Shown here one piece after another: positions 31,770 through 53,732 of a stretch of DNA of 64,000 nucleotides. Numbering within the stretch: the first letter of the stretch is position 1; each line of letters starts with the position of its first letter. The translations under genes and the position numbers were made by a program. The notes under the pieces were generated by a model. That model was given only the letters and a program-made list of their open reading frames with translations, was not told where the DNA came from and ran no database searches. The stretch comes from a virus: IMG/VR virus record IMGVR_UViG_3300031841_004047. One strand, 5' to 3'.

Positions 31770-34310
31770 ATGGGTAAGGCAAGACTTTTCAGTCAGTTGA
31801 TTGCAGGAGACGGCACAATCAAAGCTACTAAATTAGGAGCTGATGTTCCAATTACAGAAAATGTGGCGACTGCTGATAACTTGCCTCCATCCGCATCTAT
31901 AGGTGAACAAGCATTTGTTGAAGATACAAACCGACTTTATATATGGAACGGGTCAGGCTGGTATAATATCGCCTTAATTAATACTAGTCCTACATGGGAT
32001 TCCGGTGGTCAGCCTTCTGGTTCTTATGTGCTGGATGCAGATAGCCCACAAGATGCTACCATTATTACACTTGCCGCAAGCGATCCTGAAGGCTTACCAA
32101 TTCAGTATTCATACGTCACGTCTGGATCAATGGACTCGATGGCAACTATTAGTCAAGACTCCAGTGTATTTACAATTACTCCTAAAACTATTAACGAAGT
32201 AGGAGGAGAAGCAGTTGAACTAACTGGATCAATTACTTTCAGAGCATCAGACGGTGTCAATATTTTACCTCAGGTATCAAGCTTTACTCTTAGTTTTGTT
32301 ACTATTATAGAAAACAGTAGGTACACAACATTACTGGCAACAGCAGTTGATACATCAGACAACAATAATATAACAGATGCATCATCTAGTAATCATGCGA
32401 TCACAGCAGCTGGTGATGCTCATGCCGGCACGTTTAGTCCGTATCGTCATGGCGGGTATTCAACATATTTTCCTGATTCTGGTTGGGGGCCGTATACAGA
32501 TAATGTTATAGCACCAAGTTCTGATTTTGCATTTGGAACTGGAGCCTTTACTGTAAGTTTTTGGTATAAATTTGAACATTCATTTAGTTCCGAGATTTTT
32601 GATACACGTCAAACTAGTGTTAATATGAATGGATTTAGGATATGGATTGGCCCAGCCGGAGGCGCGACAGTTTATTACGCAACAAGTACGGTTTTAACTG
32701 CAACAACAACTGCAGCAGTAGGAGTGTGGGGCCACATATGTGTAACTAGAGATGGTTCTGGAAATTTAAAAATTTTTCTTAATGGTACTCAAGCCGCCTC
32801 TATAACCGATAATAATAACTATACAGCTCAGGGTCTTAATATTGGAAATAGTAATGGCGGAACAAACGATTTTAGAGGATGGATGAAAGATATTCATGTT
32901 GTAAAAGGCTATTCTTATGAACCAGATACAACTTCAATTTATTCACCAGCACAAGTGGGTGTTGGTACAGTATTTTTAGGTTGTACAACGGCGTCAATGC
33001 GAGATGTAAGTACAGCAGCAAGGACAATAAGCAGTTCAACAGGGTTTACATATACCACTGAGGTTCCTAACAACAACATAGAATACTCAGCGGCAGTTCA
33101 TGGCGGGTCTATATATTTTGATGGGACTGATGATGCTTTAGAAATTTCTGATAATGCTGATTTTGATTTATCGGGCGGTTCTTGGACTATTGAATGCTGG
33201 TGGTATCCACTAGTTGTTAACACATATGATGGTATTTTTAATCAATGGAATGGGGCAACCGTTGCTTCTGGTAGAAACATCAATGTCACATGGGAATCAA
33301 ATAGACTTTATCTTTTTGGTTATGATGGAGGAACTTTTATTTCTTCTATTTATCATGATGTAACTGCAGCTCAATTACAAAATAGATGGAACCACGTTGC
33401 CGCTGTTTTCGATGGTACAAAAACTGAATTATATTTAAACGGTGAAGCTAGTGGAAGACCCTATGTTTCATCTAATAATTTATCTAAAGATGTTGCATCA
33501 GAACCTTTTAGAGTTGCAAAGCATCATAGGCTAACATCGTACTATTACAATAATTCCTACGTTTCTGATCTTAGATTGGTTAAAGGAACCGCTGTTTATA
33601 CTGGTAATTTCACTCCACCAACAGGTCCACTTACAACTACTGGTGGGACGTACCCAAGTACAACTAATGTGAATACCAGCATTACGGCAGGACATACAAA
33701 GTTACACATCAAGGGAACAGCCGCATCTATTATTGATAAGTCACAAGGGAGTAATCTAAAACTTGTTGGAAACACCACTGGTTCAACCGCTCAGGCTAAG
33801 TTTGCTAATACTAAGTCAATGTATTTTGATGGCACGGGCGATTATGTTACTATCCCAAACTTTGAAGATATTGGTTCTGGCAATTTCACTATTGAGATGT
33901 TTATTTACCAAACGGCAAGTGGATTTTACTCTAATTTATTTTCGACCGTGGCTAACACTGCAACATCAAATGGCTTGCGAATATCAACGGGTAACAATAA
34001 CAACACTCTGCAAGTTGCATCAGCAGGTAGTGCGCTAATAAATGCAAGTTCTGCGTTTAATAATAGTACATGGAACCATATTGCTTTGGTGCGATCAGGA
34101 ACCACACTTACTCTTTATTTAAATGGTTCTTCTGTTGGGTCTGCAACAAACTCACAAAGCTTTGTTAGTGACACATTTTATATTGGAGATGTCACTGGCA
34201 CAGGCTCTCCTTATCCTTTCACGGGATACATCCAAGACTTGCGCCTCACCAAAGGACTCGCAAGATACACCGCAAACTTTACACCGCCAACAGCACTACT
34301 TAAAGGATAA
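31770..34310 (+). CDS. Triple-LamG (concanavalin A-like) virion protein, paralog 1
   Basis: Three FT(V/I)xxW...W.H(I/V)A..R.G...YLNG...D.R..KG units plus the shared N-terminal anchor. Confidence 0.85.
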   Translation: MGKARLFSQLIAGDGTIKATKLGADVPITENVATADNLPPSASIGEQAFVEDTNRLYIWNGSGWYNIALINTSPTWDSGGQPSGSYVLDADSPQDATIITLAASDPEGLPIQYSYVTSGSMDSMATISQDSSVFTITPKTINEVGGEAVELTGSITFRASDGVNILPQVSSFTLSFVTIIENSRYTTLLATAVDTSDNNNITDASSSNHAITAAGDAHAGTFSPYRHGGYSTYFPDSGWGPYTDNVIAPSSDFAFGTGAFTVSFWYKFEHSFSSEIFDTRQTSVNMNGFRIWIGPAGGATVYYATSTVLTATTTAAVGVWGHICVTRDGSGNLKIFLNGTQAASITDNNNYTAQGLNIGNSNGGTNDFRGWMKDIHVVKGYSYEPDTTSIYSPAQVGVGTVFLGCTTASMRDVSTAARTISSSTGFTYTTEVPNNNIEYSAAVHGGSIYFDGTDDALEISDNADFDLSGGSWTIECWWYPLVVNTYDGIFNQWNGATVASGRNINVTWESNRLYLFGYDGGTFISSIYHDVTAAQLQNRWNHVAAVFDGTKTELYLNGEASGRPYVSSNNLSKDVASEPFRVAKHHRLTSYYYNNSYVSDLRLVKGTAVYTGNFTPPTGPLTTTGGTYPSTTNVNTSITAGHTKLHIKGTAASIIDKSQGSNLKLVGNTTGSTAQAKFANTKSMYFDGTGDYVTIPNFEDIGSGNFTIEMFIYQTASGFYSNLFSTVANTATSNGLRISTGNNNNTLQVASAGSALINASSAFNNSTWNHIALVRSGTTLTLYLNGSSVGSATNSQSFVSDTFYIGDVTGTGSPYPFTGYIQDLRLTKGLARYTANFTPPTALLKG

Positions 34311-34317
34311 CAAAGAT

Positions 34318-35610
34318 ATGCCATCTAATGCAAGAAACTTAGCTAATTTACTTGGAGCAGGTCAAACAACACTTTCTGCAGACAAGTTAGGTGCTGATGT
34401 TCCTGCCGGTACTGAAGATTATTCTGCAGTAGACTCTCTTGGTACAGGAACTACGATTGGTGAAACAGCCTTTGTTTCTGGAACAAATAGACTTTACATC
34501 TGGACTGGTAGTGGTTGGTACAATATAGCACTTATTAACACTACTCCTACATGGGATTCAGGAGGACAACCAAGTTCTAGTTATATTTTAGATGCAGATA
34601 GCGGTAATCCTACTATTATAACTCTTGCTGCTTCAGACCCAGAAGGTATACCAATTAATTATTCATATGTTACAAGTGGACAAATGGACTCAATGGCCAC
34701 TATTACACAAGACTCTAGTGTTTTTACTATTACACCAGTTGCAGAAGATTCTCAAACTACGGGAAATTATTATTCTGGTAATATCACTTTTAGAGCAAGT
34801 GATGGTGTTAATATCTTGCCTCAAATATCAGAATTTAGTTTATCATTTAGTTATCCAGGTGGGGTTTTATTTACAACCACTGGAACACACTCTTGGACAG
34901 CTCCAGCAGGTGTTAATTCAGTTCATGTTGTTGCCGTAGGAGCTGGTGCTGGTGCTTATGATGCTGGCGGCGGAGGCGGCGGTCTCGGTTGGAAAAATAA
35001 TATTCCAGTTGTTCCTGGTCAATCATATACTGTTCGTGTTGGACCAGGAAACAAATCCATAAGTAATTCTCATAGTTATTTTATAGATGTTAATACTGTT
35101 GCAGGTCTTGGTGGTAATGGTGCTACAGGCGGATCTTATGTAGGTGATGGCGGCGGTAATGGAGGAAATGGTGCAGGTTCCGGTACATATGCTAATGCTG
35201 GAGGAGGAGGTGCAGGTGGTTATGCAGGAAATGGTGGTAATGCTCTAGGTGGAACGGAACCTACACCTGGCGGAGGAGGTGCAGGCGGTGGTGCTAACAA
35301 TCCTAATGGTCATGCTGCAGGCGGCGCTGGTGTTGGTATGTATGGTCTTGGAGCAACAGGCACTAATCATATTCCTAATACTTATACAGCTGCAACTGGA
35401 GGGTCTGGAGGAAATAATAGTACGAGCAGTGGCGTTACTTATACTTCGGGTGCATTATATGGTGGGGGTGGTAGTGGAGGAGGCTCGGGAGCTGGAGGCG
35501 GTTCATCGGCTCAAGGTGCGGTTAGAATTATCTGGGGCGCAAACAGAGCATTTCCTTCCACTAATGTAGATTTATTATCGTCTGGAGACCAAGGCGAATC
35601 AACTGTTTAG
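34318..35610 (+). CDS. Virion protein with the LamG-family anchor fused to a glycine-rich tip
   Basis: The ATG at 34318 (MPSNARNL) is preferred over the ORF-track start at 34123. The anchor NRLYIWTGSGWYNIALINTTPTWDSGG is followed by FTTTGTHSWTAPAGV..VVAVGAG and polyglycine. Confidence 0.8.
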   Translation: MPSNARNLANLLGAGQTTLSADKLGADVPAGTEDYSAVDSLGTGTTIGETAFVSGTNRLYIWTGSGWYNIALINTTPTWDSGGQPSSSYILDADSGNPTIITLAASDPEGIPINYSYVTSGQMDSMATITQDSSVFTITPVAEDSQTTGNYYSGNITFRASDGVNILPQISEFSLSFSYPGGVLFTTTGTHSWTAPAGVNSVHVVAVGAGAGAYDAGGGGGGLGWKNNIPVVPGQSYTVRVGPGNKSISNSHSYFIDVNTVAGLGGNGATGGSYVGDGGGNGGNGAGSGTYANAGGGGAGGYAGNGGNALGGTEPTPGGGGAGGGANNPNGHAAGGAGVGMYGLGATGTNHIPNTYTAATGGSGGNNSTSSGVTYTSGALYGGGGSGGGSGAGGGSSAQGAVRIIWGANRAFPSTNVDLLSSGDQGESTV

Positions 35611-35625
35611 AAGTGGAAATAATTA

Positions 35626-38124
35626 ATGCCATCTCCAGCAAGAAACTTAGCAAATTTTTTAGGAACCGGTAATACTACAGTTTCGGCAAGTAAATTATCA
35701 GCTGATGTTCCTAGAGGCACAGAAAATTATTCTGATATAAATTCTCTCGGAGTTGGTACAAATATAGGCCAAAAAGCATTTATACAAGAAACTAATAGAC
35801 TTTATATCTGGAACGGATCTGGCTGGTATAATATTGCAGTAATTAATGAAACACCAACATGGGATTCCGGTGGCGAACCATTAAGTTCATATACATTAGA
35901 TCCTGATAGCCCACAGAGTTCTACTATTATAACTCTTGCTGCATCTGACCCAGAAGGTTTTCCTATATCATATTCATATGTAACCGGCGGATCTTTTGAT
36001 TCAATCGCCACAGTTTCTCAAGATTCTACTGTATTTACAATTACTCCTAAAACAGTTTCAGAAGTTGGAGAAGGTGTTGAATTAACTGGATCTATAACTT
36101 TTAATGTCACTGATAACATAAGTATTTTATCAAAGCTATCATCGTTTACACTTAGCTTTATTAGTATCATAGAAAATAGTAGATATACTACATTACTTTT
36201 AGACGTTGTAGACACTTCTGATAACAATGATATAACTGATTCTTCTTCAAATAATGTATCTATAACCTCTTATGGTAATGCTACTGCCGGTACGTTTAGT
36301 CCTTATCATGGTGTAGGTTATAGTGGTTTTTTTAATGGAGGTCAGGAATTAAGATACCAACCCTATACAGCAGGGGATTATAATCTTGGTACTAGTAATT
36401 TTACAATGGAGGCTTGGGCATACACAACAGCTAATTCAGCGACTCAGGTTCTCTTTTCACAGAGACGTGTTAGTAATGGGGGACCACAAATCCGCGTAAC
36501 ATCAAGTGGTACTGTTCAATATTTTTATTTTAATGGAAACAACGCACAAAATTCGACTGCTATATTTCCTGTTAGACAGTGGAACCATGTGGCTCTGGTT
36601 CGCTCTGGAACTGGCGCAGATCAGACTAAAGTATATTTAAATGGTGTAGAAATATTATCTTTCCAAGAGGCGGCCAATTTTAGCAATACTGCTGCTGACT
36701 TAACGATAGGTAATTTTTCGCTGTATAGTGAGCCTTGGTATGGTTATATTGCTGATGTTAGAATTGTAAAAGATGCAGTATATACATCTGACTTTTCTAA
36801 TTCACTGCCAACAGAAACTTTAACAGCTATTAATAATACTATATTTTTAACTACATTTAATAGTAACTCTAGTAACTATTATTTTGATGATATTACGGGT
36901 AATGGAAGAGTAACTTCTAACTTAGGTAGTACCTCAGTGGTTCCAGTTACTCGCTTTGACAGCTTGGAATACAGGGCAGCTGATAACGGCGGGTCTATAT
37001 ATTTTGATGGGTCTGGAGATTATCTAAGAGCTGATGCTGCATTAAGTTCATTTACTTCAAGCACTAGCACTTATACAATTGAAGCTTATATATATCCGAC
37101 CGCTGCATATAATTCTTCAAATGATTACTTTTTTGGAATCAACAGATCAAGTGATGGTTATAACAATCTTTTATTTAGTAGAGGTGGAATATATTCCAAT
37201 AACACTGCAGTATCCTTAAGTTCAACAATAGGGCAAAATATCTGGAGTCATGTTGCATTAACTAACGATGGAACTACATTAAGAGCGTTTGTAAATGGTA
37301 GTATAGTAGCCAGCACAACAACTCTACCACAAGCTTTATCAACCTGTGTGCTTGGTTTTGGAGCAGAGTTTGATACAGCTAATGGTGGAACACCAGGGAA
37401 TTATTATACTGGATATATGTCAGATATAAGAATTTCTAATACAGCTCTTTATACAAGCGCATTTTCCCCATCATTTTCTCCTTTTACTACACCTTCAGGA
37501 ACGGTCTTACACATCAAAGGTACTGATGCATCCCTTATTGATAAGTCCCAAAATGATAATTTAAGGCTTTTTGGAAATACTACTGGTTCAACCGCTCAGG
37601 CTAAGTTTGCTAATACTAAGTCAATGTATTTTGATGGAACTGGAGATTATGTAGTAATACAAAATAGTAGTGTTGCAGATTTTAAAACTGGTGATTTTAC
37701 TATTGAAACGTGGGTTTATTGTGAAGATACTAATACAAATCAAATAATTGAAACAAGACCAAGCAATACAAACGGAGCATATGTTACTATTGCTGTCCAA
37801 GCTGGGTCAGGAGTTTATTTTTATACCAACACTACACACCTATTTACAGGTACTAATGGGCGAGTAGGAACTATCAATACTGGTCAATGGCATCATGTTG
37901 CTTGGGTTCGTTACAATGGAACAATTACTGCATACATTGATGGAGTAAGTGTAGGCTCTGCATCAAACAGTACAAACTTTATCCGAAATCGTGTTACAAT
38001 TGGCTGGAATGCTTACGTTGGAGAAAACACTGGTTCAGTTTATATACAAGATTTGAGAATCACCAAAGATCTAGCAAGATATACCGCAAACTTTACACCA
38101 CCAACCGAACCGTTTAAAGGTTAA
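35626..38124 (+). CDS. Triple-LamG virion protein, paralog 2
   Basis: Same architecture as 31770. Confidence 0.85.
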   Translation: MPSPARNLANFLGTGNTTVSASKLSADVPRGTENYSDINSLGVGTNIGQKAFIQETNRLYIWNGSGWYNIAVINETPTWDSGGEPLSSYTLDPDSPQSSTIITLAASDPEGFPISYSYVTGGSFDSIATVSQDSTVFTITPKTVSEVGEGVELTGSITFNVTDNISILSKLSSFTLSFISIIENSRYTTLLLDVVDTSDNNDITDSSSNNVSITSYGNATAGTFSPYHGVGYSGFFNGGQELRYQPYTAGDYNLGTSNFTMEAWAYTTANSATQVLFSQRRVSNGGPQIRVTSSGTVQYFYFNGNNAQNSTAIFPVRQWNHVALVRSGTGADQTKVYLNGVEILSFQEAANFSNTAADLTIGNFSLYSEPWYGYIADVRIVKDAVYTSDFSNSLPTETLTAINNTIFLTTFNSNSSNYYFDDITGNGRVTSNLGSTSVVPVTRFDSLEYRAADNGGSIYFDGSGDYLRADAALSSFTSSTSTYTIEAYIYPTAAYNSSNDYFFGINRSSDGYNNLLFSRGGIYSNNTAVSLSSTIGQNIWSHVALTNDGTTLRAFVNGSIVASTTTLPQALSTCVLGFGAEFDTANGGTPGNYYTGYMSDIRISNTALYTSAFSPSFSPFTTPSGTVLHIKGTDASLIDKSQNDNLRLFGNTTGSTAQAKFANTKSMYFDGTGDYVVIQNSSVADFKTGDFTIETWVYCEDTNTNQIIETRPSNTNGAYVTIAVQAGSGVYFYTNTTHLFTGTNGRVGTINTGQWHHVAWVRYNGTITAYIDGVSVGSASNSTNFIRNRVTIGWNAYVGENTGSVYIQDLRITKDLARYTANFTPPTEPFKG

Positions 38125-38129
38125 AATCT

Positions 38130-38137
38130 TATAAATA
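38130..38137 (+). promoter_or_regulatory. T4-type late promoter
   Basis: Intergenic TATAAATA. Confidence 0.8.
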
Positions 38138-38161
38138 TAACTAATAAATTTACTAAATTAA

Positions 38162-38452
38162 ATGGGAAAACTGATGGCCGATAATCTTGAGGGACGTCTC
38201 GACAGAATAGAGGATAAGATGGACAAAATGGCTGAAGCTCTTGTCACACTTGCTCGTTTTGAAGAGAAGATGGATGCTTATAATGAGTATCGTCAAAATT
38301 CGTGGGAACGAATGAATAAGTTTTCAGAAAAATTAGATAGAATCGAAAAGACAGTTGAAGAGAATGCTCACACTGTTGCTATAATTAATAAACTTTTTTG
38401 GGTCGCGATTGTGGCGGCTGCTGGCGCAATAGCCACACAGATCTGGATGTAA
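38162..38452 (+). CDS. Coiled-coil protein with a C-terminal transmembrane helix; start may be 38174
   Basis: RLDRIEDKMDKM heptads, then LFWVAIVAAAGAIA. Confidence 0.7.
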   Translation: MGKLMADNLEGRLDRIEDKMDKMAEALVTLARFEEKMDAYNEYRQNSWERMNKFSEKLDRIEKTVEENAHTVAIINKLFWVAIVAAAGAIATQIWM

Positions 38453-38462
38453 GGAGAAAAAT

Positions 38463-39875
38463 ATGGAAATCGACTATAGAAAATTGGCCAGCGCTTATCT
38501 GCAAGTCTTAGACGAATCACAAATCGTGATTCCTGAAGAGATTCCGGCCAATGAAAGAAATGCATTTATGGGTGCTGCTGCAGCAGCTCATAAAGCTGGA
38601 AAATCTCATTTTAATTTTGGTGGTCAAAAGCATAAAGTGACCATGAAAAAAGACACCGCAAAATCTATCAACTCTGAAAAAATTCCCGAAGGAGTAGAGA
38701 AAGTTGAATGTCCAAAATGTGAAGGGAAAGGTTGTGCTCACTGTGACATGAAAGGTTATCATGTGACGGGTACAGCTGATAACAACATTAAAGGCACTGA
38801 TGAAAAGAAAACTACGGAGAAAGTACAAGAAGGCAATATGAACGGAATGTGCTGTAAGAACTGCGGTGATATGTTTGGCCAACCCACAGAAGGTAATTGC
38901 ACATATGATGCATATGATCCAAAAGGTAAGAACTGGATTGAAGCTGAAAAACAGCACGAGTCTGTAGACGAAGATGTAAATTTTGTACCACATAGTAACT
39001 GTCCTTGTGGTAATGATTGTGATTGTGATCCATGCACTTGTTCAGAAGTAAAAGAAGAAAAACAAATAGATGAAATTTCTCGTAGTATGACACCAATGAG
39101 AAATAGATTTGGTGGAAATGTAGATCCTAAAAAGTTTGATACATATAAGAAACACATGAAAACACATAAGTTGGATGAACCAACGGTACGTATGATTCAT
39201 CAAAATCCAGATGATGCTGAATCAAAGCGTATGATGAAGAATCCAAAGTATGCTCAAGCAGTAGGTTTATATAAAGCTTCAATGAAAAAAGAAGAAGTAG
39301 AACTTGATGAAAAGAAACTAACGCCTAAAGAGATTAAGAGAGCTTTAGCAAGTATTAAGCCTCCTAAAAAGAAACCAACTTTACCGAAAGCACCTTTTGA
39401 GATTCCAAAAGAAAACACTCTGCCAGCTCCAGAAGGTGGTAAGAAAAGAGTTCGCAGCGCAGATAAAAGACCTGTGAATATAAACGTAGACGGTAAAACA
39501 GTAACAAGGATGGAGCCAGTGACAAAACGAACAGCAGCAGCTTATGAAAGCGTAAATCGTGAAAATTGGCTAGATGCGTTGCAAAATAAAAAATTGCAAG
39601 AAGCAGAAGACGCCAAAACTAAAATGAGCAAGCCAACAGCAATTCATCATTCAGACGATGCTACAAGGGATACTTTTGATAAGCAACTATCTACTCGTAA
39701 AGGTGAAAAAGATTTCGTGGATGCGCATAAGATAGAAACACCGGAGTATGCAGATGTTCTATCGGTAGTGCCAAAGACCTTTGCTGCTTTTACGGCGGGT
39801 GTAAATAGTCCAAAGATGAGAGATAATGATAACCCACAAGGTGATAAAAAGCCAGTGAAAAACGACGGAAAATAA
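38463..39875 (+). CDS. Highly charged putative internal head protein with Cys-rich metal-binding segments
   Basis: K/E-rich, with many (L/I/V)-x-E sites of the type cut by the T4 prohead protease gp21. Contains CPKCEGKGCAHC, CCKNC and CPCGNDCDCDPCTC. Confidence 0.6.
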   Translation: MEIDYRKLASAYLQVLDESQIVIPEEIPANERNAFMGAAAAAHKAGKSHFNFGGQKHKVTMKKDTAKSINSEKIPEGVEKVECPKCEGKGCAHCDMKGYHVTGTADNNIKGTDEKKTTEKVQEGNMNGMCCKNCGDMFGQPTEGNCTYDAYDPKGKNWIEAEKQHESVDEDVNFVPHSNCPCGNDCDCDPCTCSEVKEEKQIDEISRSMTPMRNRFGGNVDPKKFDTYKKHMKTHKLDEPTVRMIHQNPDDAESKRMMKNPKYAQAVGLYKASMKKEEVELDEKKLTPKEIKRALASIKPPKKKPTLPKAPFEIPKENTLPAPEGGKKRVRSADKRPVNINVDGKTVTRMEPVTKRTAAAYESVNRENWLDALQNKKLQEAEDAKTKMSKPTAIHHSDDATRDTFDKQLSTRKGEKDFVDAHKIETPEYADVLSVVPKTFAAFTAGVNSPKMRDNDNPQGDKKPVKNDGK

Positions 39876-39884
39876 AAACCCTAT

Positions 39885-40250
39885 ATGAGATATGATGATC
39901 TGAATGATAATAACTTTGCTATATTTGCCGCGAAACATTATCATAACCATAAATGTATTATTATTGAAGAATTTCAAGAAGATTTAAACAGATTTAAATA
40001 TATAAAAAGACTGGTGAATCGTTATTTAGAAAGTGGAAAGCTATCTGAAAGGTTGATACTTAACCACCTGATAGTAATTTTTAATTCTTTTGGAATTAAA
40101 GCTTCTGTTCATATGCTTCTTCATAAACTAGATGATAAACACTGGCCAGTTGTTAAGCCGTTTCTGATATTGCTTGGCTACATAAAAAATGATGAGCTGA
40201 CAGACGTAGTAATGGATAAGGAAGTAATAGAAGTTTTAAGGAAGATTTAA
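39885..40250 (+). CDS. Conserved hypothetical protein of T4-like marine phages
   Basis: MRYDDLNDNNF..FAAKHY...EEFQEDLNRFKYIKRL..RY...ERLILNHLI. Confidence 0.8.
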   Translation: MRYDDLNDNNFAIFAAKHYHNHKCIIIEEFQEDLNRFKYIKRLVNRYLESGKLSERLILNHLIVIFNSFGIKASVHMLLHKLDDKHWPVVKPFLILLGYIKNDELTDVVMDKEVIEVLRKI

Positions 40251-40251
40251 T

Positions 40252-40839
40252 ATGGGTGTTATACAAAGAGCAGGTGATCTAGTCTATACCTTTAGGTTCT
40301 TAACTTTATTAGTTACTAAGTTTGAAAAAACAAAAGCTTTTCAGCTTGGTCTTATTGATAAAGATGGAAAAAGAATAAAAGAAGAACCAATCGATACCTC
40401 CGATAAAAAAAGTGCTTATACTCCTTTTCATCGGTTAGTATTCAATATAAAAAGACTTATGGCAAAAGTGCCCGGTGGTAGTTCTTCTCTTGCATCCTAT
40501 GCTGCTGCTTTATACCTAATTAAAGAAAAGCTAGAACTTTCTGACAAATCTCTAAAACAAATTGTAGAAAAGTGTGGTTTAGAAACTCTTGATTTTCTGA
40601 CTGAAAGTAGTGAGTGGTTCGTACTTGAAGACAAGAGTATATCAGCAGGTGTATACAGTCTTAAGTATGATAAAGTTGTCAACAGTACAGTTGAAGAAAT
40701 AGTTAGATCAAAAGATAAAATTAGGTTCAACGAAAACACTTACCCGGTTGGACAAATATTTGGTCTTGATATATATGAAGCTACACACATAAATACTAAT
40801 CAAAAAGTATTCGTTGCTATCGAGGAACTACTAAGATGA
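40252..40839 (+). CDS. Conserved hypothetical protein of T4-like phages
   Basis: DLVYTFRFL.LL...FEKTKAF.LGLID.DG...YTPFHRLVFNIKRL. Confidence 0.78.
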   Translation: MGVIQRAGDLVYTFRFLTLLVTKFEKTKAFQLGLIDKDGKRIKEEPIDTSDKKSAYTPFHRLVFNIKRLMAKVPGGSSSLASYAAALYLIKEKLELSDKSLKQIVEKCGLETLDFLTESSEWFVLEDKSISAGVYSLKYDKVVNSTVEEIVRSKDKIRFNENTYPVGQIFGLDIYEATHINTNQKVFVAIEELLR

Positions 40840-41093: not shown

Positions 41094-41094
41094 A

Positions 41095-45300: not shown

Positions 45301-45919
45301 ACTCTTTAATAATGATGGAACGAAGATGTATCTTAATATTCAAAGAATGCCGGTTTTGTCAAATACAGCCATTATAGAATATGATTTATCAACAGCGTAT
45401 GATCTGACGACAATATCACGTACCAGTATTCAATACTTAACTACCGGAACTGGAAATCCTGGCGCTGGACCTAGAGGAATGGCTTGGAACGGTGATGGAA
45501 CAAAATTAATTACACTGAATGAGGCGGGTAATTTATTTAGATTTAGCACAGGTGCAAATACTCTTAGTTATAGCACATCAGAAACTTGGGTTGATGGCAC
45601 AAACAACAACGAACATGCCACGCTGCAACAAGCACTAGGAGCACAATCGTTTAACAGAATGAACAAAGCACAGCTAGATGCAGTGGCTGATGGTTATCAC
45701 TTTAGTCAGGATAGCGCTGATACTCTGGATCTTATGATTGCTCCTTATGCAGCTTCTGGAGCAAGTCCTATTTCAGATGGTGTTACAATTAACTATGATG
45801 CAGAAGTTTTAGTTAGAGAAGCGGTGGCTGGTACAGACTATATCGCAGAATTTCCATCTCCAAACAGACTGGACATCAAGTCGCTCATAAACGGTAACCT
45901 CAAGATAAGGGCTCAGTAA
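42314..45919 (+). CDS. Virion protein with three beta-propeller blocks
   Basis: Repeated blades F(S/N)xDGTK(M/L)(F/Y)...YxLST(A/P)WDI in three blocks, plus the family-type N-terminus MASNARNLSKLLG. Confidence 0.82.
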   Translation: MASNARNLSKLLGTSTQVPTTALPQAIADLETIGTSLTGGDIAPKNISSNTLTQSFDSNQTVNFIMSDSIDTISPIISVFKEVPQPGVSSKGNWDVNANATNYDFYDEKPISYSSVSLTPSATGDGTFTSSNPVISGYVIANASLDTDSFDPSSQETSPQGLDISPDGTKLIVVGDADDALDYYTLSTPFDLSSATYDGTTSAINSNPYGCRFSSTGHKIFVSRNQADDVYEIPLSTNYDASTAGAFQSSGNLTTLSGNAQADFNGIHFSSDGTKMFSCDEANNKVHEYTLSTAWDITTLSYVHAFDISSQDTIVNDLAFTDDGTRMFILGSQTGYIYEYGLTQAWDVSSASYSNISLAQTNGRGMTFSNSGQKMYLCKIGAAELIRYSTSSSTAFNSSDVGKKVVGNSGTAVITSTAGAYTSVTPFADTSAISSWQLFGAEGKSDGTGIQLSGYSNKYDLVNATYTTISPYLNQAEGYNYMSFKPDGTKVWVGGQQSDTIYEYNLGTGFDLSTITYSTSFAFATSSQSQGFAIKSDGTRAYIQDFNSAIRQLDLSTAWNISTATFNSVSLGTTVYNKGLYIKPDGTKLYTIGTGSNIREYTLSTPWDLSNYSLDNTVTLASPVTSNDIYFSADGTKFFVPQSTGGRFVNAYSLSTAWDTSSTITFITSFSLPEIGSYTPQAVSFNTDGSAMYVINGENASTSPARRILEYATGSTLHPYSQYSPALTNSSSGQINSSSWTDINSMTSDETKNSGDIFYAVSTDNRASWGVAKASDGVRKIARNNSGTWQYNNNAGTPVLTGYDFTNFAYDNVTASTGISGNNEEIRFNNDGTKLYILSDNGPNGDGVYQFSLSTAYDISTLSYDSVYYNSTQGASVRDIQFNADGTKMFILHSNTKTIYRYSLSTAFNVGTASYDNVSLLVNYAAANAPMGFFFNGDATKLYLIWAGGSNSGDSTIYERQLPGAYDISSATAVSTFLYNEPDLPAGTTQAYASSGLFNNDGTKMYLNIQRMPVLSNTAIIEYDLSTAYDLTTISRTSIQYLTTGTGNPGAGPRGMAWNGDGTKLITLNEAGNLFRFSTGANTLSYSTSETWVDGTNNNEHATLQQALGAQSFNRMNKAQLDAVADGYHFSQDSADTLDLMIAPYAASGASPISDGVTINYDAEVLVREAVAGTDYIAEFPSPNRLDIKSLINGNLKIRAQ

Positions 45920-48405
45920 TGGTTAGTAAAGCTTTATCACTCGCAAAACTATTAGGTGACAACAATAAGTTGTCCACGGATACTTTTGGGGACGATGTTT
46001 CTACGATTGAACAAGCTTCAAGCACTGACGTATTAACTAACTTAGGCAATGCTGTTGGAGATCAAAGACTAGTAGGAAGTAATCTTTATATCTGGAACGG
46101 AACGGGCTGGTACAGGATTGCTTTGATTAATCAAACTCCTACATGGGATTCCGGTGGTCAGCCTTCTGGTTCTTATGTGCTGGATGCAGATAGTCCACAA
46201 GATGCTACCGTTATTACGTTAGCAGCAAGTGATCCAGACGGTTTACCAATATCATATAGTTATGTCACATCTGGTTCAATGGACTCGATGGCAACAATAT
46301 CTCAAGACTCGAGTATCTTTACAATTACTCCTAAAACAGTTGCGCAAGTAGGAGAAGGCGTTGAATTAACTGGTAGTATTACTTTCAGAGCATCTGACGG
46401 TGTCAATATTCTTCCTTCAGTTTCATCATTTACATTGAGTTTTATTACCAGTCTAGAAAACAGTAGGTACACAACTTTATTGGCAACAGCAGTTGATACT
46501 AGCGATAATAATAACATAACCGATAGTTCAACTAGCAACCATACGATCACAGTAACTGGTGATGCTCATGCCGGCACGTTTAGTCCGTATCGGCACGGTG
46601 GATATAGCACTTACTTCGATGGAAATGGGGATTATATTGGTGTAGGTTCAGCTATAGTTCCTACAGCATATGATACTGATTACACCATTGAAATGTGGAT
46701 ATACCCAACCACTACAGGTTCGAGGGAAGATATATTTAATCAATATGCGGCAACTGCCAGTGGCAGAATGGCTATAAATATTAATACCGATGCTACTATT
46801 TCTTTTTTCCAAAACGGGCTATCCCCAGCGGAAACAAAATCCTCTGCTATATCTGCTAATAACTGGTATCATCTAGCAGTAGTTAATTCCAGTGGAACCA
46901 GATCTTTTTATGTTAATGGAAGTTTAATTGGGACCGCTACTGGAACCGCAAGTATGTATAACGGAAATACTGAAATTGGTCGCTTGGGTGATGTAGGTTC
47001 AAATTATTTTACAGGTTATATTACTGATGTAAGAGTAGTAAACGGAACCGCGGTATACACTGGCAGTTTTACCCCACCAACAGATCGTCTTACCGCTGTA
47101 GCAAACACTTCTCTACTTACTTGCCACCTTCCATACATAGCAGATGGTTCTTCTAGCGCTCACTCAATCACAGTGAACGGCGACACTTCAACAAAACCAT
47201 TCACTCCTTACGACAACTTAGAATACGCAGCAGCAGATCACGGTGGGTCGGTGGTCTTTGATGGGTCTGGGGATTATCTAACATATTCTGCTGGTAATGA
47301 AATAGGATTTAGCACAGGTGATTTTACTGTTGAGTTTTGGGCGTACAATAAGTTTTCAACTGGAAGTCTGCAAAAAATTATTGAAACAAGAACGGCATCA
47401 AATTGGATTATCCAGATTGCTTCAACTAACCATTTTCAATGGTACAATGGCTCAACTACTGTATTTAATTATGACATTTCTTATACGAAAAATACATGGG
47501 CACATTTTGTAGTAACAAGAGATGGGACAACTCTTCGATTGTTTGTAAATGGTAGACTTGTAAGCACTACTACAGATAGTGTTTCTTATTCGGTGTCGTC
47601 AGGAACTGTATATATTTCTAGAAGATATAACGATAACTTAGATTATTTTTCTGGGTATTTAACTGATTTGCGAATAGTTAAAGGCAGTGTTGTTACGGAG
47701 TATCAAACTTCTTCTACAACTACAGATACCCAAATATTTACCCCACCAACTGCCCCTCTTACAGCAATTACAGACACTTCACTACTTATCTCAGGTACAG
47801 ATGCTTCTATTATTGATAAGTCACAAACCAGCAATTTAAAACTTGTTGGAAACACCACTGGTTCAACCGCTCAGGCTAAGTTTGCGAATACTAAGTCAAT
47901 GTATTTTGATGGGAACGGGGATAGCGTGTTTGTGCCTTACGAGAGTATCCCCAGCTTTGGAATAATAGAATTTACTATTGAGGGCTGGATCTATATGAAC
48001 AACCTTACAGGAAACCAACTGATCGTAGACAAATGGGTTTCTGGCAACTCTCAAGGTTTTCAATTTTATCATAGGTCTACAGGGTCATCATTGACGTTTT
48101 ACGTTGGAAACGTAATCGTTGTTCAAGACCCAAGCAGTTCCAGTATTTCGGCGCAGACATGGCACCACGTTGCTGTAACTAGAGATTCAGGTGCTAACGT
48201 AAGATTATATGTGGATGGCCTTAAAAAAGCTCAGTCCTTTTCCCCTGTAAGTTTAGATAACACGCTTCCTTTACGTTTGGGCGCATCGGCAACATCAACC
48301 AATTACTTCAATGGTTATATGCAAGATGTCAGGCTGAGTAACAAGGCTCTTTACACTGCTGATGACGAAAGTAGTAACATCCCATCCGAACCACTGAAAG
48401 GATAG
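45919..48405 (+). CDS. Triple-LamG virion protein, paralog 3
   Basis: Same anchor and linkers as 31770. Confidence 0.85.
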   Translation: MVSKALSLAKLLGDNNKLSTDTFGDDVSTIEQASSTDVLTNLGNAVGDQRLVGSNLYIWNGTGWYRIALINQTPTWDSGGQPSGSYVLDADSPQDATVITLAASDPDGLPISYSYVTSGSMDSMATISQDSSIFTITPKTVAQVGEGVELTGSITFRASDGVNILPSVSSFTLSFITSLENSRYTTLLATAVDTSDNNNITDSSTSNHTITVTGDAHAGTFSPYRHGGYSTYFDGNGDYIGVGSAIVPTAYDTDYTIEMWIYPTTTGSREDIFNQYAATASGRMAININTDATISFFQNGLSPAETKSSAISANNWYHLAVVNSSGTRSFYVNGSLIGTATGTASMYNGNTEIGRLGDVGSNYFTGYITDVRVVNGTAVYTGSFTPPTDRLTAVANTSLLTCHLPYIADGSSSAHSITVNGDTSTKPFTPYDNLEYAAADHGGSVVFDGSGDYLTYSAGNEIGFSTGDFTVEFWAYNKFSTGSLQKIIETRTASNWIIQIASTNHFQWYNGSTTVFNYDISYTKNTWAHFVVTRDGTTLRLFVNGRLVSTTTDSVSYSVSSGTVYISRRYNDNLDYFSGYLTDLRIVKGSVVTEYQTSSTTTDTQIFTPPTAPLTAITDTSLLISGTDASIIDKSQTSNLKLVGNTTGSTAQAKFANTKSMYFDGNGDSVFVPYESIPSFGIIEFTIEGWIYMNNLTGNQLIVDKWVSGNSQGFQFYHRSTGSSLTFYVGNVIVVQDPSSSSISAQTWHHVAVTRDSGANVRLYVDGLKKAQSFSPVSLDNTLPLRLGASATSTNYFNGYMQDVRLSNKALYTADDESSNIPSEPLKG

Positions 48406-48409
48406 TACA

Positions 48410-48649
48410 ATGAAAACCTTTAAATCATTTTCAGAAGGATCTGGAAAAAAACCGGAATCGTGGGAAGCTGGTTATAAAAGACGTGTGGTTAAAACAACAA
48501 AACCTGAGCACAAAGAAAAGGGTTATGACTGGAGAATCAAGGGTAAAGATCGTCCTGAGATCTCTATTAAACTATACAAGAATAAACCTTCTCAATCAGA
48601 GTTTAATAAACAAATGAGAAGAGTAGCGGGACATGAATTTGGAGGCTAA
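48410..48649 (+). CDS. Small basic putative internal head protein
   Basis: N-terminus MKTFKSFSE resembles the T4 internal-protein capsid targeting sequence. Confidence 0.62.
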   Translation: MKTFKSFSEGSGKKPESWEAGYKRRVVKTTKPEHKEKGYDWRIKGKDRPEISIKLYKNKPSQSEFNKQMRRVAGHEFGG

Positions 48650-48651
48650 GA

Positions 48652-51201
48652 ATGCCAAGTAAAAGTAGGTTAGTATCTAAAGCTTTCAGTACTTCTGGGG
48701 TTTTATCGACTATAGCGTCTGAAAACCCGACCGTTGATACAGGAACTACACAAATCGCAAACGTTGATGCTCTTCCTACTTCAGGAAATGAAACTGGTGA
48801 TCAACTTTTCATTGAAGCTACTAATAGATTGTATATATGGAACGGGTCTGGCTGGTACAACATAGCTCTTATTAATACAAGTCCAACGTGGGATTCTGGA
48901 GGGCAACCCGCTGCATCCTATGAGTTAGACGTTGATAGCCCACAAGATGCTACGATAATAAGTTTAGCTGCGTCTGATGCTGAAGGCTTGCCGATTCAGT
49001 ATTCATACGTCACGTCTGGATCAATGGACTCGATGGCAACTATCAGCCAAGATTCATCAGTGTTCACAATTACTCCAAAAACAGTTGCGCAAGTAGGAGA
49101 AGGTGTTGAATTAACTGGTAGTATTACTTTCAGAGCATCTGACGGTGTAAATATTCTTCCTAGTATATCTAGTTTTGTTCTTAATTTTGTTTTCACTGTA
49201 GAAAATAGCAAGTATACAACTCTATTGTTAGAAGCGGTTGATACTTCAGATAACAATAATATAATCGATTCATCTTCCAACAACCACGCTATCACGGTAA
49301 CAGGGGATGCTAGAGCCAGCTCGTATAGTCCGTATCGTCATGGTGGGTATAGTACTTATTTTGATGGGACTGGAGATAAACTATCCGTATCTAATAATTC
49401 AAATTTTGATGTTGGCTCTAATGATTTTACTTTGGAATTTTGGTATTATCCTCAAACATCAGTTCTTAATGGATTTATAGCGGGTTATTACTCATCAACA
49501 AATAATCAACGTAGTTATGCTATCCGTCACGACGATGTAACCGGTAATTTATCAATGGTCTTTTCTACCGATGGAACCTTCCAAAGTGGAAATGCCACTT
49601 CAAGTAACATAACACCAACAGACATGAATAATAAATGGAATCATATTGCTATTACAAAATCAGGAACAACAGCAAAGCTCTGGCATAATGGTAATTTAGT
49701 GGCAACTAATTCATCAGCACCAACAACATTATATTCACCGACATCCGGTCCTTTTAATATAGGTACATTTAATGATAGCACTTACATACAAGGATATCTA
49801 ACAGATGTTAGGTTAGTGGTTGGTACGGAATTATACACCAGCAACTTTACTCCACCATCTACACGTCTTACCGCCATAACAAATACTTCATTACTCACCT
49901 GCCATCTCCCGTACTTTGCGGATGGTTCTACCAACAATCATGCTATTACTGTAAGCGGCAATCCTGTAACGAGTCCGTTTGGTCCCTATGACAACAAAAA
50001 ATACTCAGCATCAAGTCACGGAGGGTCTGTGTATTTCGATGGGTCTGGGGATTATCTAACTATTTCAAATGATACTTCGCTAAACTTAGCAAATACAAGT
50101 TTTACGATTGAGTGTTGGGTATTTCCTATGCTTGACTATAGTAACTATAGAACTATTTTTTGTAAGCGGGTCAGTGGTAGCTTAACTACAAGTTATCAGG
50201 GCTATTTAGCCACTAGCACCGGCAGAATTGGATTTTATAATGGGACAGTTTATGAAAGTTCCACTGTTTTAGTAAGTAATGCTTGGAGCCATTGTGCGTG
50301 GGTATATGATGGCACAAATATTAAAATTTTTGTAAATGGCACTCAGGTGCTTTCTCAAACTACAAGTATATCTGAGATAGATGAGCCTCTCTCTATTGGA
50401 TTTACAAGAGGATATACTGAAATATTCGGCGGATATATTTCTGATTTTAGAATAGTCAAAGGCACCGCTGTTTATACTGGTAATTTCACTCCACCAACCT
50501 TTCCTCTTACTGCAGTTACAAACACTTCACTACTTCTCTCGGGCACTGACGCATCTATCATAGATAAGTCACAAACCAGCAATTTAAAACTTGTTGGAAA
50601 CACTACTGGTTCAACAACTCAGGTTAAGTTTACGGATACAAAATCTATATATTTTGCTTCAGTCTCGCAGACCGATTACGCTAGTTCAAAACATGGTGGA
50701 CTTTTATCTTTAAGTGGACCATTTACAATTGAATTTTGGTGCAATATGAATACTGGAGGAGCTGTTAATTATACCGCTTTCTTTTATTGGACCGGAACCA
50801 ATTATGTGGCAAGGTTAACAGATAGTGGATTTGGTAATAGATTACAACTTTGTTTTGACGCTGGGGCACAGACTGGTATTTATGCAGTGAATGCAACTCG
50901 AACATACTTAGCAGGCCTTGGTTGGTTTCATTTTGCATGGACAAGAGATAATAATAATGATAATAGAATATTTATTAATGGAAGTATAGTAAATGTTACT
51001 GGAGGCTCTAATTGGTCCTCCTATCCATCTCCAAGTTCATTCCCACTAAGTTCTTTTAATGACAATAGAACACTTGGCAGTTCTGCTGATTTTGTTTTTG
51101 CCGCTGGAGATGGTGGTTATGTTCAAGACTTCAGAGTCACTAAAGGTCTCGCAAGATACACCGCAAACTTTACACCGCCAACCGAACCACTTTTAGGATA
51201 A
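48652..51201 (+). CDS. Triple-LamG virion protein, paralog 4
   Basis: Same anchor and linkers as 31770. Confidence 0.85.
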   Translation: MPSKSRLVSKAFSTSGVLSTIASENPTVDTGTTQIANVDALPTSGNETGDQLFIEATNRLYIWNGSGWYNIALINTSPTWDSGGQPAASYELDVDSPQDATIISLAASDAEGLPIQYSYVTSGSMDSMATISQDSSVFTITPKTVAQVGEGVELTGSITFRASDGVNILPSISSFVLNFVFTVENSKYTTLLLEAVDTSDNNNIIDSSSNNHAITVTGDARASSYSPYRHGGYSTYFDGTGDKLSVSNNSNFDVGSNDFTLEFWYYPQTSVLNGFIAGYYSSTNNQRSYAIRHDDVTGNLSMVFSTDGTFQSGNATSSNITPTDMNNKWNHIAITKSGTTAKLWHNGNLVATNSSAPTTLYSPTSGPFNIGTFNDSTYIQGYLTDVRLVVGTELYTSNFTPPSTRLTAITNTSLLTCHLPYFADGSTNNHAITVSGNPVTSPFGPYDNKKYSASSHGGSVYFDGSGDYLTISNDTSLNLANTSFTIECWVFPMLDYSNYRTIFCKRVSGSLTTSYQGYLATSTGRIGFYNGTVYESSTVLVSNAWSHCAWVYDGTNIKIFVNGTQVLSQTTSISEIDEPLSIGFTRGYTEIFGGYISDFRIVKGTAVYTGNFTPPTFPLTAVTNTSLLLSGTDASIIDKSQTSNLKLVGNTTGSTTQVKFTDTKSIYFASVSQTDYASSKHGGLLSLSGPFTIEFWCNMNTGGAVNYTAFFYWTGTNYVARLTDSGFGNRLQLCFDAGAQTGIYAVNATRTYLAGLGWFHFAWTRDNNNDNRIFINGSIVNVTGGSNWSSYPSPSSFPLSSFNDNRTLGSSADFVFAAGDGGYVQDFRVTKGLARYTANFTPPTEPLLG

Positions 51202-51203
51202 AC

Positions 51204-53732
51204 ATGAGTAGGACAAGATCTATATCAAGAGCTTTTGGTTCATCTGGTGTTCTATCAGCCGTTACATCAGCAGTTCCATTTTTTGATAATCAGAAATCAA
51301 GCGTGGCTGGTGTTTCAAACTTACCTGATGTTGGAAATGAGGTTGGTGATCAAGTATTCGTTCAAGCTACAAATAGAATCTATTACTGGAACGGATACGG
51401 CTGGTACAACATCGCTGTTGTAAACAACAGTCCGACTTGGGATTCAGCAGGACCTCCCAGTTCATCATATACGTTAGACGCTGACAGCCCGCAAGATGCT
51501 ACCGTTATTACTTTATCTGCCTCTGATCCTGATGGACTGCCGTTAAGTTATTCTTACGTAACTAGCGGATCCATGGACTCGATGGCCACGATCAGCCAAG
51601 ACTCAAGTGTCTTTACGATCACTCCTAAAACAGTTGCGCAAGTAGGCGCAGGAGTTGAACTAACTGGATCAATTACTTTCAGTGCATCTGATGGAGTTAA
51701 TATTTTACCTCATGTATCAAGTTTTACACTTAGCTTTATATTCGAAGTTGATAACAGTAGGTATACAACATTACTCTTAGACGTTGTAGACACTTCAGAC
51801 AACAATACCATAGTTGATTCATCATCAAATAATGAAACCATAACTGTTTATGGGAACCCTAGTGCCGGTACGTTTAGTCCATACCGGCATGGTAGCTACA
51901 CTAACTATTTTGATGGAACTAATAGTTATATACGTTTTAATAACAATGAATTAGAAATAACCACGGAAGATTTTACAATTGAAGCATGGATAAATTGTAA
52001 AGTAGGAACTACAATGTACATTGCAGCAAATGCTATATGGTACCAAGGAGATAATAGAGGTTGGAGGTTGAGTATTGATACTTCTGGATTGATAAGTTTA
52101 AGTGCCTCTCAAGGTGTTTGGAACACCTTTCCAAATATTTATACTTCTACGAATGCCATAACAAGTGATGAATGGAATCATATTGCTATATGCAGAGAAT
52201 CTGGAGTTATTAGTTCATATATAAATGGTATTAAAGATCCAACGACTGTAACTTATTCTTCCTCACTAAATCAACTTGGAGATAATGACGGAAGTCCCAA
52301 CGCAGCTATTTCTTATGTTGGAACTTATTTAGCAGATAATATAATCCGCAACCCTTTTCTTGGAAATATGGCTGATTTTCATTTTAAACTTGGTTCAGCA
52401 AAATATAATTCTAATTTTGATGTTCCAACCGAAAGATTGACTGCTGAAACTGGCACCACTATACTATTATTTAATGATGGAAGGGAAGTAAAAGATAACT
52501 CTGTAAACAACTATTCTTTTACTAATGCCTCAGTAGGTTTTAAGCCTCCGGGTCTCTATGACAACTTGGAATACTTGGCGACAGATCATGGTACATCTAT
52601 ATATTTTGATGGCTCTGGGGATACACTGGAACTACAATCAAGTGTTGCAAACGTGGTGTCAGTCGACTTTACTGCCGAGTGCTGGATATATCCACGCGTT
52701 CTTGGTGGAGCTATAATGGATAAGGATCATAAACCAAATGTATCTTTTCCATTATGGGCTTTAACTATATCAAGTACAGGTGTACTTAACAACTTTATTG
52801 GTAGCGGTAACGGAACTTCAAGTTCTCAACTAATATCAACTGCAGCGGGTGTCATCAAACTAAATACGTGGCACCACATTGTTGTTACTAAAAGCGGAAG
52901 TACACTTACAACTTATGTTGATGGTGTTCAAGAATCTAGTGCTACAATAACTGCAAACCTAATTGATGGAGGAAAGCCTTTTTATATCGGTTCGAGATCA
53001 AAGACCGATCAATGGTTTAATGGCTATATAGCAGACCTTCGATTTGTAAAAGGATCTGTTCTCTATACTTCCAACTTTACACCACCAACAGCGCCTTACA
53101 CTACTTCTACTGGTCTGGATCTTCATCTCAAAGGAACGGAAGCTTCAATCATAGATAAGTCCCAGACTAATAATCTCCAGCTTGTTGGAAACACTACTGG
53201 ATCAACCACTCAAACTAAGTTTGCTAATACTAAGTCAATGTATTTTGATGGAACTGGAGATTATGTAATAATAAATGATACTAACATAGCCAATTTTGGA
53301 ACAAGTGATTTTACTATTGAAACGTGGGTTTATTGTGAAGATACTAATACAAATCAAATAATTGAAACAAGACCAAGCAATACAAACGGATCATATATCT
53401 CTGCTGGTATTCAAGCCGGGTCAGGAATTTTCTTTTATACCAATAATGCATACGCACATACAGGTACTAGGATAGGGACTATTAATACCGGTCAATGGCA
53501 CCATGTTGCCTGGGTTCGTTACAATGGAACAATTACTTCATACATTGATGGAGTAAGTGTAGGCTCTGCATCAAATACTACAAATGTTATTTCAAGTAAT
53601 ACTTATATCGGATGGAATGCTTTTGCTGGAGACAACACTGGTTCAGTTTATATTCAAGATTTTAGAGTTACTAGAAACATAGCAAGATATACCGCAAACT
53701 TTACACCACCAACCGCACCGTTTAAAGGTTAA
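51204..53732 (+). CDS. Triple-LamG virion protein, paralog 5
   Basis: Same anchor. The third LamG domain is closely related to that of 35626. Confidence 0.85.
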   Translation: MSRTRSISRAFGSSGVLSAVTSAVPFFDNQKSSVAGVSNLPDVGNEVGDQVFVQATNRIYYWNGYGWYNIAVVNNSPTWDSAGPPSSSYTLDADSPQDATVITLSASDPDGLPLSYSYVTSGSMDSMATISQDSSVFTITPKTVAQVGAGVELTGSITFSASDGVNILPHVSSFTLSFIFEVDNSRYTTLLLDVVDTSDNNTIVDSSSNNETITVYGNPSAGTFSPYRHGSYTNYFDGTNSYIRFNNNELEITTEDFTIEAWINCKVGTTMYIAANAIWYQGDNRGWRLSIDTSGLISLSASQGVWNTFPNIYTSTNAITSDEWNHIAICRESGVISSYINGIKDPTTVTYSSSLNQLGDNDGSPNAAISYVGTYLADNIIRNPFLGNMADFHFKLGSAKYNSNFDVPTERLTAETGTTILLFNDGREVKDNSVNNYSFTNASVGFKPPGLYDNLEYLATDHGTSIYFDGSGDTLELQSSVANVVSVDFTAECWIYPRVLGGAIMDKDHKPNVSFPLWALTISSTGVLNNFIGSGNGTSSSQLISTAAGVIKLNTWHHIVVTKSGSTLTTYVDGVQESSATITANLIDGGKPFYIGSRSKTDQWFNGYIADLRFVKGSVLYTSNFTPPTAPYTTSTGLDLHLKGTEASIIDKSQTNNLQLVGNTTGSTTQTKFANTKSMYFDGTGDYVIINDTNIANFGTSDFTIETWVYCEDTNTNQIIETRPSNTNGSYISAGIQAGSGIFFYTNNAYAHTGTRIGTINTGQWHHVAWVRYNGTITSYIDGVSVGSASNTTNVISSNTYIGWNAFAGDNTGSVYIQDFRVTRNIARYTANFTPPTAPFKG

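Follow-up and report, generated by a model that had tools for sequence, protein, structure and literature searches.

We analysed a 64,000-nt stretch of viral DNA (IMG/VR record IMGVR_UViG_3300031841_004047; hereafter the window), which carries between positions 31,770 and 53,732 an array of genes for proteins with three LamG domains each. Comparison of these genes with one another and with their relatives in other phages strongly supports the conclusion that recombination exchanges the LamG domains as units, or cassettes, and that its breakpoints fall in the conserved linkers. The simplest reading of the data is that a family of modular adhesin-type genes diversifies here through general homologous recombination, and not through a dedicated system; we further consider it probable that the window belongs to an uncultured marine T4-like myovirus and represents its host-recognition island.

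The genes are referred to as A (starting at 31770), B (35626), C (45919), D (48652), E (51204) and F (34318). The original prediction, made without database searches, had described A to E as five genes built to one plan with three LamG domains each, and our Pfam scan bears this out: each of these plus-strand open reading frames (ORFs) contains three stretches of PF13385 (Laminin_G_3), with E-values of 1e-39 to 1e-63 and scores of 135-213 bits against a gathering cut-off of 27.6 bits, and the five proteins align over their full length with the linker motifs quoted in that prediction present. A sixth gene of the family, F, had been missed. In all six genes about 30-45 variable N-terminal residues are followed by a shared module, which in A to E leads into linker 1, LamG1, linker 2, LamG2, linker 3 and LamG3 (Table 1). 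The LamG domains have about 190 residues each, and the conserved linkers in front of them about 30-50. The listed ORF of gene F starts at 34123 and overlaps gene A; its homology to the other genes starts at 34318.

Pairwise amino acid identity among A to E is 16-41% in the N-terminal 45 or so residues, 67-82% in the shared module, 60-88% in linker 1, 23-44% in LamG1, 38-62% in linker 2, 27-36% in LamG2, 62-88% in linker 3 and 29-38% in LamG3, with the exception of the LamG3 domains of B and E, which are 75% identical at the amino acid level and 84% at the nucleotide level. Apart from this B/E pair, whose likeness had been predicted, the LamG cores are as divergent (23-44%) as originally described and are flanked by the conserved module and linkers, as in adhesins of the gp38 type. 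The predicted count of 15 cassettes also stands, and resolves into 14 lineages and one close pair.

The shared module matches 62 IMG/VR loci (designated by L numbers) at 39-83% identity. These loci hold 95 distinct module-bearing proteins; 59 ORFs consist of the module and three LamG domains, a few have four or five LamG domains, and 45 carry other heads. Three related genomes, G001 (86% complete), G002 (100%) and G003 (100%), hold 7, 18 and 7 module-bearing genes, respectively. Alignment of gene C with its relative at L021:3104-5575 gives a shared module that is 75% identical at the nucleotide level and LamG2 domains that are unrelated; LamG1 is mostly 95-100% and LamG3 mostly 92-100% identical in 60-nt windows, and both are 96% identical overall. 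All three linkers contain a breakpoint, that of linker 2 lying between DHGGS and V and that of linker 3 at SNLKLVGNTTG, and the genes that neighbour the L021 gene have no homologues in the window.

Synonymous (dS) and nonsynonymous (dN) divergence was calculated by the Nei-Gojobori method, per segment and within single gene pairs. For C and L021, dS is 1.42 in the module, 0.07 in LamG1 and 0.13 in LamG3; the module and the shared cassette give 1.25 and 0.19 (LamG1) for A and L016, 2.5 and 0.35 for D and L017, and 1.68 and 0.28 (LamG3) for B and E. Synonymous divergence differs 5- to 20-fold among segments of one gene pair, and these contrasts are the main support for the exchange of cassettes by homologous recombination that had been predicted. 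With dN/dS ratios of 0.18-0.49, against 0.08-0.14 for the shared modules, the cassettes are functional units on which purifying selection acts, and not hypermutating targets.

Several cassettes of the window have close counterparts in other phages or at other positions. LamG1 of gene A is 94% identical in amino acid sequence to LamG1 of L016; LamG1 and LamG2 of gene B are 79% and 68% identical to L008/L011, and its LamG3 pairs instead with that of gene E; LamG2 of gene D is 86% identical to LamG1 of L017:7399-9864, that is, to a cassette in the first position. Swapped cassettes, which the original prediction had proposed to seek in related genomes, occur there as natural chimeras with breakpoints in conserved motifs, as known for gp38: the C/L021 mosaic and two replacements of a single cassette between alleles whose identity is otherwise 97-100%. 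L001:163-2655 and L002:2893-5391 are mostly 93-100% identical at the nucleotide level, with 75-78% in linker 1 and only 28-58% in LamG2, and L036:3352-5883 and L049:9770-12382 are 100% identical to residue 380 and unrelated past linker 2. The second of these two cases is seen in independent metagenomes: the L036 form is found unchanged in L037, and L048 and L049 agree over 1197 nt without a difference. Of 22 non-redundant gene pairs that share a cassette at an amino acid identity of at least 70%, 20 share a subset of their cassettes and 2 share all of them.

Inside the window, the two predicted matches in the shared modules are exact, at 31989-32044 and 46138-46193 (56/56 nt) and at 32100-32149 and 48994-49043 (50/50 nt). 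The longest exact tract between paralogues, 86 nt (37691/53305), lies in LamG3 of B and E, and exact repeats between paralogues span 50-86 nt. Runs of identical variable sites are longer than in permuted alignments for A-C, A-D and C-D in the shared module and for A-B and B-E in linker 3 (each p = 0.0005), with a further value of p = 0.003 for B-E; the long runs fall at different places along the genes for different pairs.

The linkers had been described as near-identical in DNA, and this does not hold. Nucleotide identity among paralogues is 61-79% in linker 1, 56-71% in linker 2 and 68-83% in linker 3. At sites where two paralogues have the same residue, the frequency of the same codon is 0.45 in LamG1, 0.48 in LamG2, 0.53 in the shared module, 0.65 in linker 2 and 0.64 in linker 3 (0.53-0.65 for the linkers overall), and 0.85 in LamG3 of B and E; codon usage predicts 0.41-0.45. 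Codon identity of the linkers in the window is above expectation, yet far from complete, and this extra DNA identity looks like local gene conversion. When 892 pairs of triple-LamG genes drawn from many phages are compared, the same-codon frequency of the linkers is 0.42-0.56 against 0.38-0.50 expected. Because this family-wide synonymous identity is close to chance, the linkers are conserved as protein and not as DNA-level constant elements. In an AlphaFold2 model of full-length gene C (mbf968d3bdcf5; predicted local distance difference test (pLDDT) 82, predicted template modelling score 0.74), linkers 1 and 3 form beta strands with a pLDDT of about 90, and linker 2 has a pLDDT of about 82-91. 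The linkers are therefore predicted to belong to the fold and not to act as floppy spacers; the three resemble one another weakly.

Conservation of the linkers as protein, together with their modelled strand structure, would be accommodated by plain whole-gene duplication and divergence, in which purifying selection keeps the linkers, the LamG cores drift and no cassette is exchanged. The results of the pairwise homoplasy index (PHI) test given below point the same way, as does the clustering of cassettes largely by position: a tree of 155 cassettes shows 16 changes of position label, compared with about 72 when labels are shuffled. The small number of label changes indicates that exchange is mostly like-for-like by position. 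Of 37 cassette clusters, 7 nevertheless mix positions, and the same tree, of the kind originally proposed as a check on shuffling, places LamG3 of B and E with LamG2 of L017 (support 100), LamG2 of D with LamG1 of L017 (support 100) and LamG3 of C with LamG1 of L010 (support 95), and every window cassette with a supported sister has that sister in another phage, except LamG3 of B and of E, which are mutual sisters. Duplication followed by drift does not account for these jumps between positions, for near-identical alleles that differ by one whole cassette, for the disparity of dS along single gene pairs, or for the 84% nucleotide identity of LamG3 in B and E when the remainder of both genes is saturated, and we regard it as extremely unlikely.

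The raised synonymous identity of linkers 2 and 3 inside the window (0.64-0.65 against 0.42-0.45 expected), and the size of the family, which reaches 18 genes in one genome, could be read as signs of a dedicated, programmed generator that would rearrange cassettes frequently during every infection cycle, whether similar to a diversity-generating retroelement (DGR), similar to a shufflon or invertase, or using the linkers selected as recombination signals. We rejected a DGR: there is no RVT_1 match in the G001, G002 and G003 genomes (two estimated 100% complete, one 86%), Pfam and PHROGs scans of window ORFs gave no reverse transcriptase domain, and no pair of template and variable repeats differing at adenines was found. 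The 76 differences between LamG3 of B and E are spread over all bases and are mostly transitions, with no adenine bias. A shufflon or invertase was rejected as well, since no recombinase or integrase domain occurs among the window ORFs scanned against the same databases. The array contains a single, weak pair of inverted repeats (21 nt, 86%), unrelated to cassette borders, and all array copies are complete, same-strand, expressed-looking genes and not silent donor cassettes. Synonymous sites of the linkers are, moreover, not conserved across the family. The original prediction was thus right to expect neither a reverse transcriptase nor an invertase, and a programmed generator of any of these types appears highly unlikely.

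We propose instead, as the probable explanation, that general homologous recombination diversifies the family, acting between co-infecting relatives as well as among the paralogues of a single genome. Sufficient likeness for recombination exists only in the shared module, in the linkers and in the conserved strand that closes every LamG domain; crossovers would therefore fall in these stretches, and whole LamG domains would be replaced as cassettes. Replacement would be mostly like-for-like by position and sometimes out of register, which would explain cassettes at new positions and could account for proteins with four or five LamG domains. The terminal LamG strand shows DNA-level likeness across positions (repeat family D9), which supplies the homology needed for out-of-register events. 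A single scaffold would in this way come to bear binding domains in many combinations. Replication in T4-type phages proceeds by recombination, and the phage's own UvsX-type machinery presumably does the recombining; a RecA/UvsX-like gene is present in the relatives G001 and G002.

A Foldseek search with the full-length model of gene C returned laminin LG1-3 and neurexin LNS structures as its top matches (E-values of 1e-13 to 1e-10), which confirms a LamG/LNS beta-sandwich fold at the level of the model; a sequence search of the PDB gave one weak match, to an S-layer LamG. Laminin and neurexin share with the array proteins a tandem arrangement of LamG/LNS domains; the similarity to these eukaryotic extracellular-matrix proteins is, however, one of fold only, with 9-12% sequence identity. 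The shared module combines a conserved beta-hairpin with a domain of the cadherin/Ig-like type.

The T4 late-promoter box TATAAATA occurs in intergenic gaps of the window just upstream of gene starts, at 7308, 12190, 13592/13603, 14369, 38130, 42281 and 60510 on the plus strand and at 54460 on the minus strand, and has 14 matches in the window compared with 7.8 expected. In cyanophages, LamG homologues carry the annotation of baseplate wedge or virion structural protein. Together with the genomic context, these observations suggest that the array proteins are virion adhesins, whose LamG domains would bind host surface glycans. The same cassette exchange could serve another role, in which the proteins are head, neck or whisker decorations, similar to Hoc-like Ig and lectin adhesins, that bind particles, mucus or non-host surfaces and do not determine host range. 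The Ig/cadherin-like shared module bears no likeness to known baseplate-docking domains, and the predicted model resembles a string of globular domains more than a trimeric fibre, both of which favour decoration; the position of the array in a host recognition cluster close to VrlC, among tail-fibre and baseplate-type genes, and the annotation of the cyanophage homologues favour host-range receptor-binding proteins. We regard a decoration role as unlikely, yet deserving of consideration.

A number of observations weigh against our reading as a whole. The recombination tests that the original prediction had called for are divided: the permutations of identical runs are significant for several pairs, and the PHI test within the window is not (p = 0.08 and 0.99), so that we rely mainly on the cross-genome dS contrasts. 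The recombinase gene is found in relatives and not in this window. Neither the shared module (tblastn) nor the array (megablast) has a match among 50,697 GenBank phages (INPHARED), which means that there is no isolate relative and hence no proteomics by homology. Foldseek searches of the shared module against the PDB and BFVD gave generic Ig/cadherin matches and no known baseplate-docking domain, and we infer virion location and glycan binding of the array proteins from indirect evidence. Finally, the relatives are all IMG/VR metagenome assemblies, in which mis-joins at repeats are possible in principle, and no other contig repeats the cassette combinations of the window.

These last two points, with the exact repeats of 50-86 nt between paralogues in the window, are what would be expected if short-read assemblers had joined strains or paralogues at the conserved linkers and so produced apparent chimeras. 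Such an artefact is difficult to reconcile with the recovery of the same chimeric forms from independent samples (L036/L037 and L048/L049) and of the same proteins at identical coordinates in L008 and L011-L014, in L022-L024, in L004/L005 and in L042/L043. Several breakpoints map to linker 2, in which the window paralogues have no exact repeat of at least 26 nt, and identity falls gradually across the breakpoints, with no switch at one repeat. We therefore consider an assembly artefact very unlikely, and retain genuine exchange by homologous recombination as the probable explanation.

The closest known case is gp38 of T-even phages, in which hypervariable segments lie between conserved glycine-rich motifs (Tetart 1998; Trojet 2011, PMC3157838); the motifs serve both as structural core and as crossover sites, and recombination between phages swaps specificity segments (PMC3157838). 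What the original prediction put forward as an undescribed system is, in its principle, this known modular exchange of adhesin segments at conserved motifs (PMC3157838), taking place inside the known host recognition cluster close to VrlC (PMC7029224). Both gp38 and the array exchange variable segments at conserved motifs to give new combinations. The units of gp38, however, are short loops in one small domain of one gene, whereas here each protein has three of them, every one a whole LamG domain of about 190 residues, and a genome has 6-18 such paralogous genes. No gp38 family match appears among the Pfam or PHROG results, and the likeness is one of working principle and not of homology.

Other phages combine several receptor-binding proteins. 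In Klebsiella depolymerase phages and in the tailspikes of CBA120-type phages, several genes share an N-terminal part and differ in their C-terminal binding or enzymatic heads, and the heads move horizontally. The array resembles these in having several genes with a shared N-terminal part and exchangeable heads; it differs in that its shared module is Ig/cadherin-like, with no detected similarity to their anchors, and in that exchange also takes place inside the head, cassette by cassette. DGRs act on phage tail-fibre genes, for example Mtd of Bordetella phage BPP-1; they have the same purpose of diversifying a phage receptor-binding protein and a different mechanism, as no reverse transcriptase, template repeat or adenine-specific changes were found here.

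In the literature on LamG or Laminin_G_3 domains in marine phages we found no description of this family. New in our data are the exchanged unit, a whole LamG domain, three per gene, in 6-18 genes per genome; the age of the cassettes, far younger than their scaffolds; and the clade, an uncultured marine T4-like lineage. It is possible, and we suggest this only tentatively, that the array represents a selected 'combinatorial lectin' design in a widespread uncultured marine T4-like clade, in which a common pool of whole lectin domains is re-assorted between divergent phages on ecological time scales, so that genomes otherwise almost identical would differ by one cassette. If true, 6-18 such genes per virion would give a breadth and turnover of glycan recognition not described for any phage. 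The host range of abundant ocean phages is poorly understood and the clade has no cultured member; a single LamG domain, mobile from gene to gene and from phage to phage, is a concrete, testable unit of host-range evolution. The near-identical alleles are unusually clean natural before-and-after pairs, metagenomic time series could track adhesin turnover cassette by cassette, and the genes provide a natural scaffold with defined junctions for studying combinations of lectin domains in phage binding.

Consideration of the surrounding genes places the array in its genomic context. In pelagimyophages and cyanomyophages, the host recognition cluster is a hypervariable, large non-syntenic island between VrlC and the neck gene gp14, containing tail fibres, concanavalin-A-domain structural proteins and metabolic genes (PMC7029224). 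The window opens with a VrlC-like gene, which also matches cyanomyophages by tblastn, and continues with fibre, chaperone and baseplate-type genes; the VrlC-like protein marks the start of the host recognition cluster that holds the array. The window is like the described clusters in this opening and in the kind of its content; gp14 was not identified in it. The published account differs in covering variability at the level of genes, and not the shared-module family or the exchange of LamG cassettes within genes (PMC7029224). The genes of the window form one long plus-strand block of the late phage type, with a GC content of about 38%, and no tRNA genes were found.

Table 1. Positions of the array genes, their segments and other annotated features of the window.
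Feature	Coordinates	Strand	Segments or basis
VrlC-like protein	2-3772	+	tblastn 32% aa to VrlC of Pelagibacter phages Mosig and HTVC008M; phrog_358, E 4e-247
gp9/10-N and S74-chaperone fibre	3967-5604	+	Pfam/PHROG scans
Tail-fibre assembly chaperone	8694-9044	+	Pfam/PHROG scans
629-aa ORF	9846-11735		Gly_rich_2 (PF21722) head, without shared module
2-oxoglutarate (2OG)-Fe(II) oxygenase	12223-12870	+	PF13759; among fibre genes
3803-aa ORF	17463-28874	+	single ORF; weak YadA_head repeat match only
116-aa ORF	31416-31766	+	directly upstream of gene A; no Pfam family
Gene A, 846 aa	31770-34310	+	N-terminus 31770-31886; shared module 31887-32342; linker 1 32343-32468; LamG1 32469-33035; linker 2 33036-33131; LamG2 33132-33695; linker 3 33696-33839; LamG3 33840-34307
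Gene F	34318-35610	+	shared module (hidden Markov model E 1e-75); Gly_rich_2 head (PF21722 / phrog_4474); no LamG; repeat families D4, D10
Gene B, 832 aa	35626-38124	+	shared module 35749-36204; linker 1 36205-36330; LamG1 36331-36921; linker 2 36922-37017; LamG2 37018-37500; linker 3 37501-37644; LamG3 37645-38121
Gene C, 828 aa	45919-48405	+	shared module 46039-46488; linker 1 46489-46614; LamG1 46615-47175; linker 2 47176-47271; LamG2 47272-47775; linker 3 47776-47919; LamG3 47920-48402
Gene D, 849 aa	48652-51201	+	shared module 48778-49233; linker 1 49234-49359; LamG1 49360-49953; linker 2 49954-50049; LamG2 50050-50523; linker 3 50524-50670; LamG3 50671-51198
Gene E, 842 aa	51204-53732	+	shared module 51327-51782; linker 1 51783-51908; LamG1 51909-52526; linker 2 52527-52619; LamG2 52620-53114; linker 3 53115-53258; LamG3 53259-53729
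Glyceraldehyde-3-phosphate dehydrogenase, full-length	54907-55875	+	PF00044 and PF02800, E 1e-59; phrog_21942

The surroundings of module-bearing genes vary among relatives. Genome G002 (IMGVR_UViG_3300033182_000674, locus L034; 219.7 kb, estimated 100% complete) carries its 18 module genes in several clusters on both strands. In the close relative L016/L019 (4205-11781), compared with 55878-64000 and 31899-33146 of the window, an A-like gene directly abuts an inverted homologue of the 55.9-64 kb region, and proteins neighbouring this junction are up to 98.5% identical in amino acid sequence to those of the window. This rearrangement at the array probably took place between dispersed copies of the shared module, and the varying gene order around the array is as expected from recombination between such copies. 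The Gly_rich_2 head is found once behind the shared module, in gene F, and once without it, in the 629-aa ORF, which indicates that heads are also used off the common scaffold.

Homologues of the 116-aa ORF lie directly 5' of module-bearing genes in L001, L002, L006 and L010 (blastn, 74-89% nucleotide identity), and its product may be a partner or assembly factor. A tail-fibre-like 821-aa ORF is also present downstream of the VrlC-like gene (Pfam/PHROG scans). The 3803-aa ORF is probably a giant fibre or structural protein; L017 holds a partly homologous 1294-aa ORF, up to 71% identical in amino acid sequence and truncated where the contig stops. The best tblastn match, phage DSL-LC04, has one long multi-LamG tail-region protein and no array; a 2OG-Fe(II) oxygenase (L063 5324-5944) sits beside that protein, much as the one of the window lies among fibre genes. 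The glyceraldehyde-3-phosphate dehydrogenase gene, a candidate auxiliary metabolic gene, sits just downstream of the fibre array in the structural and host-recognition region.

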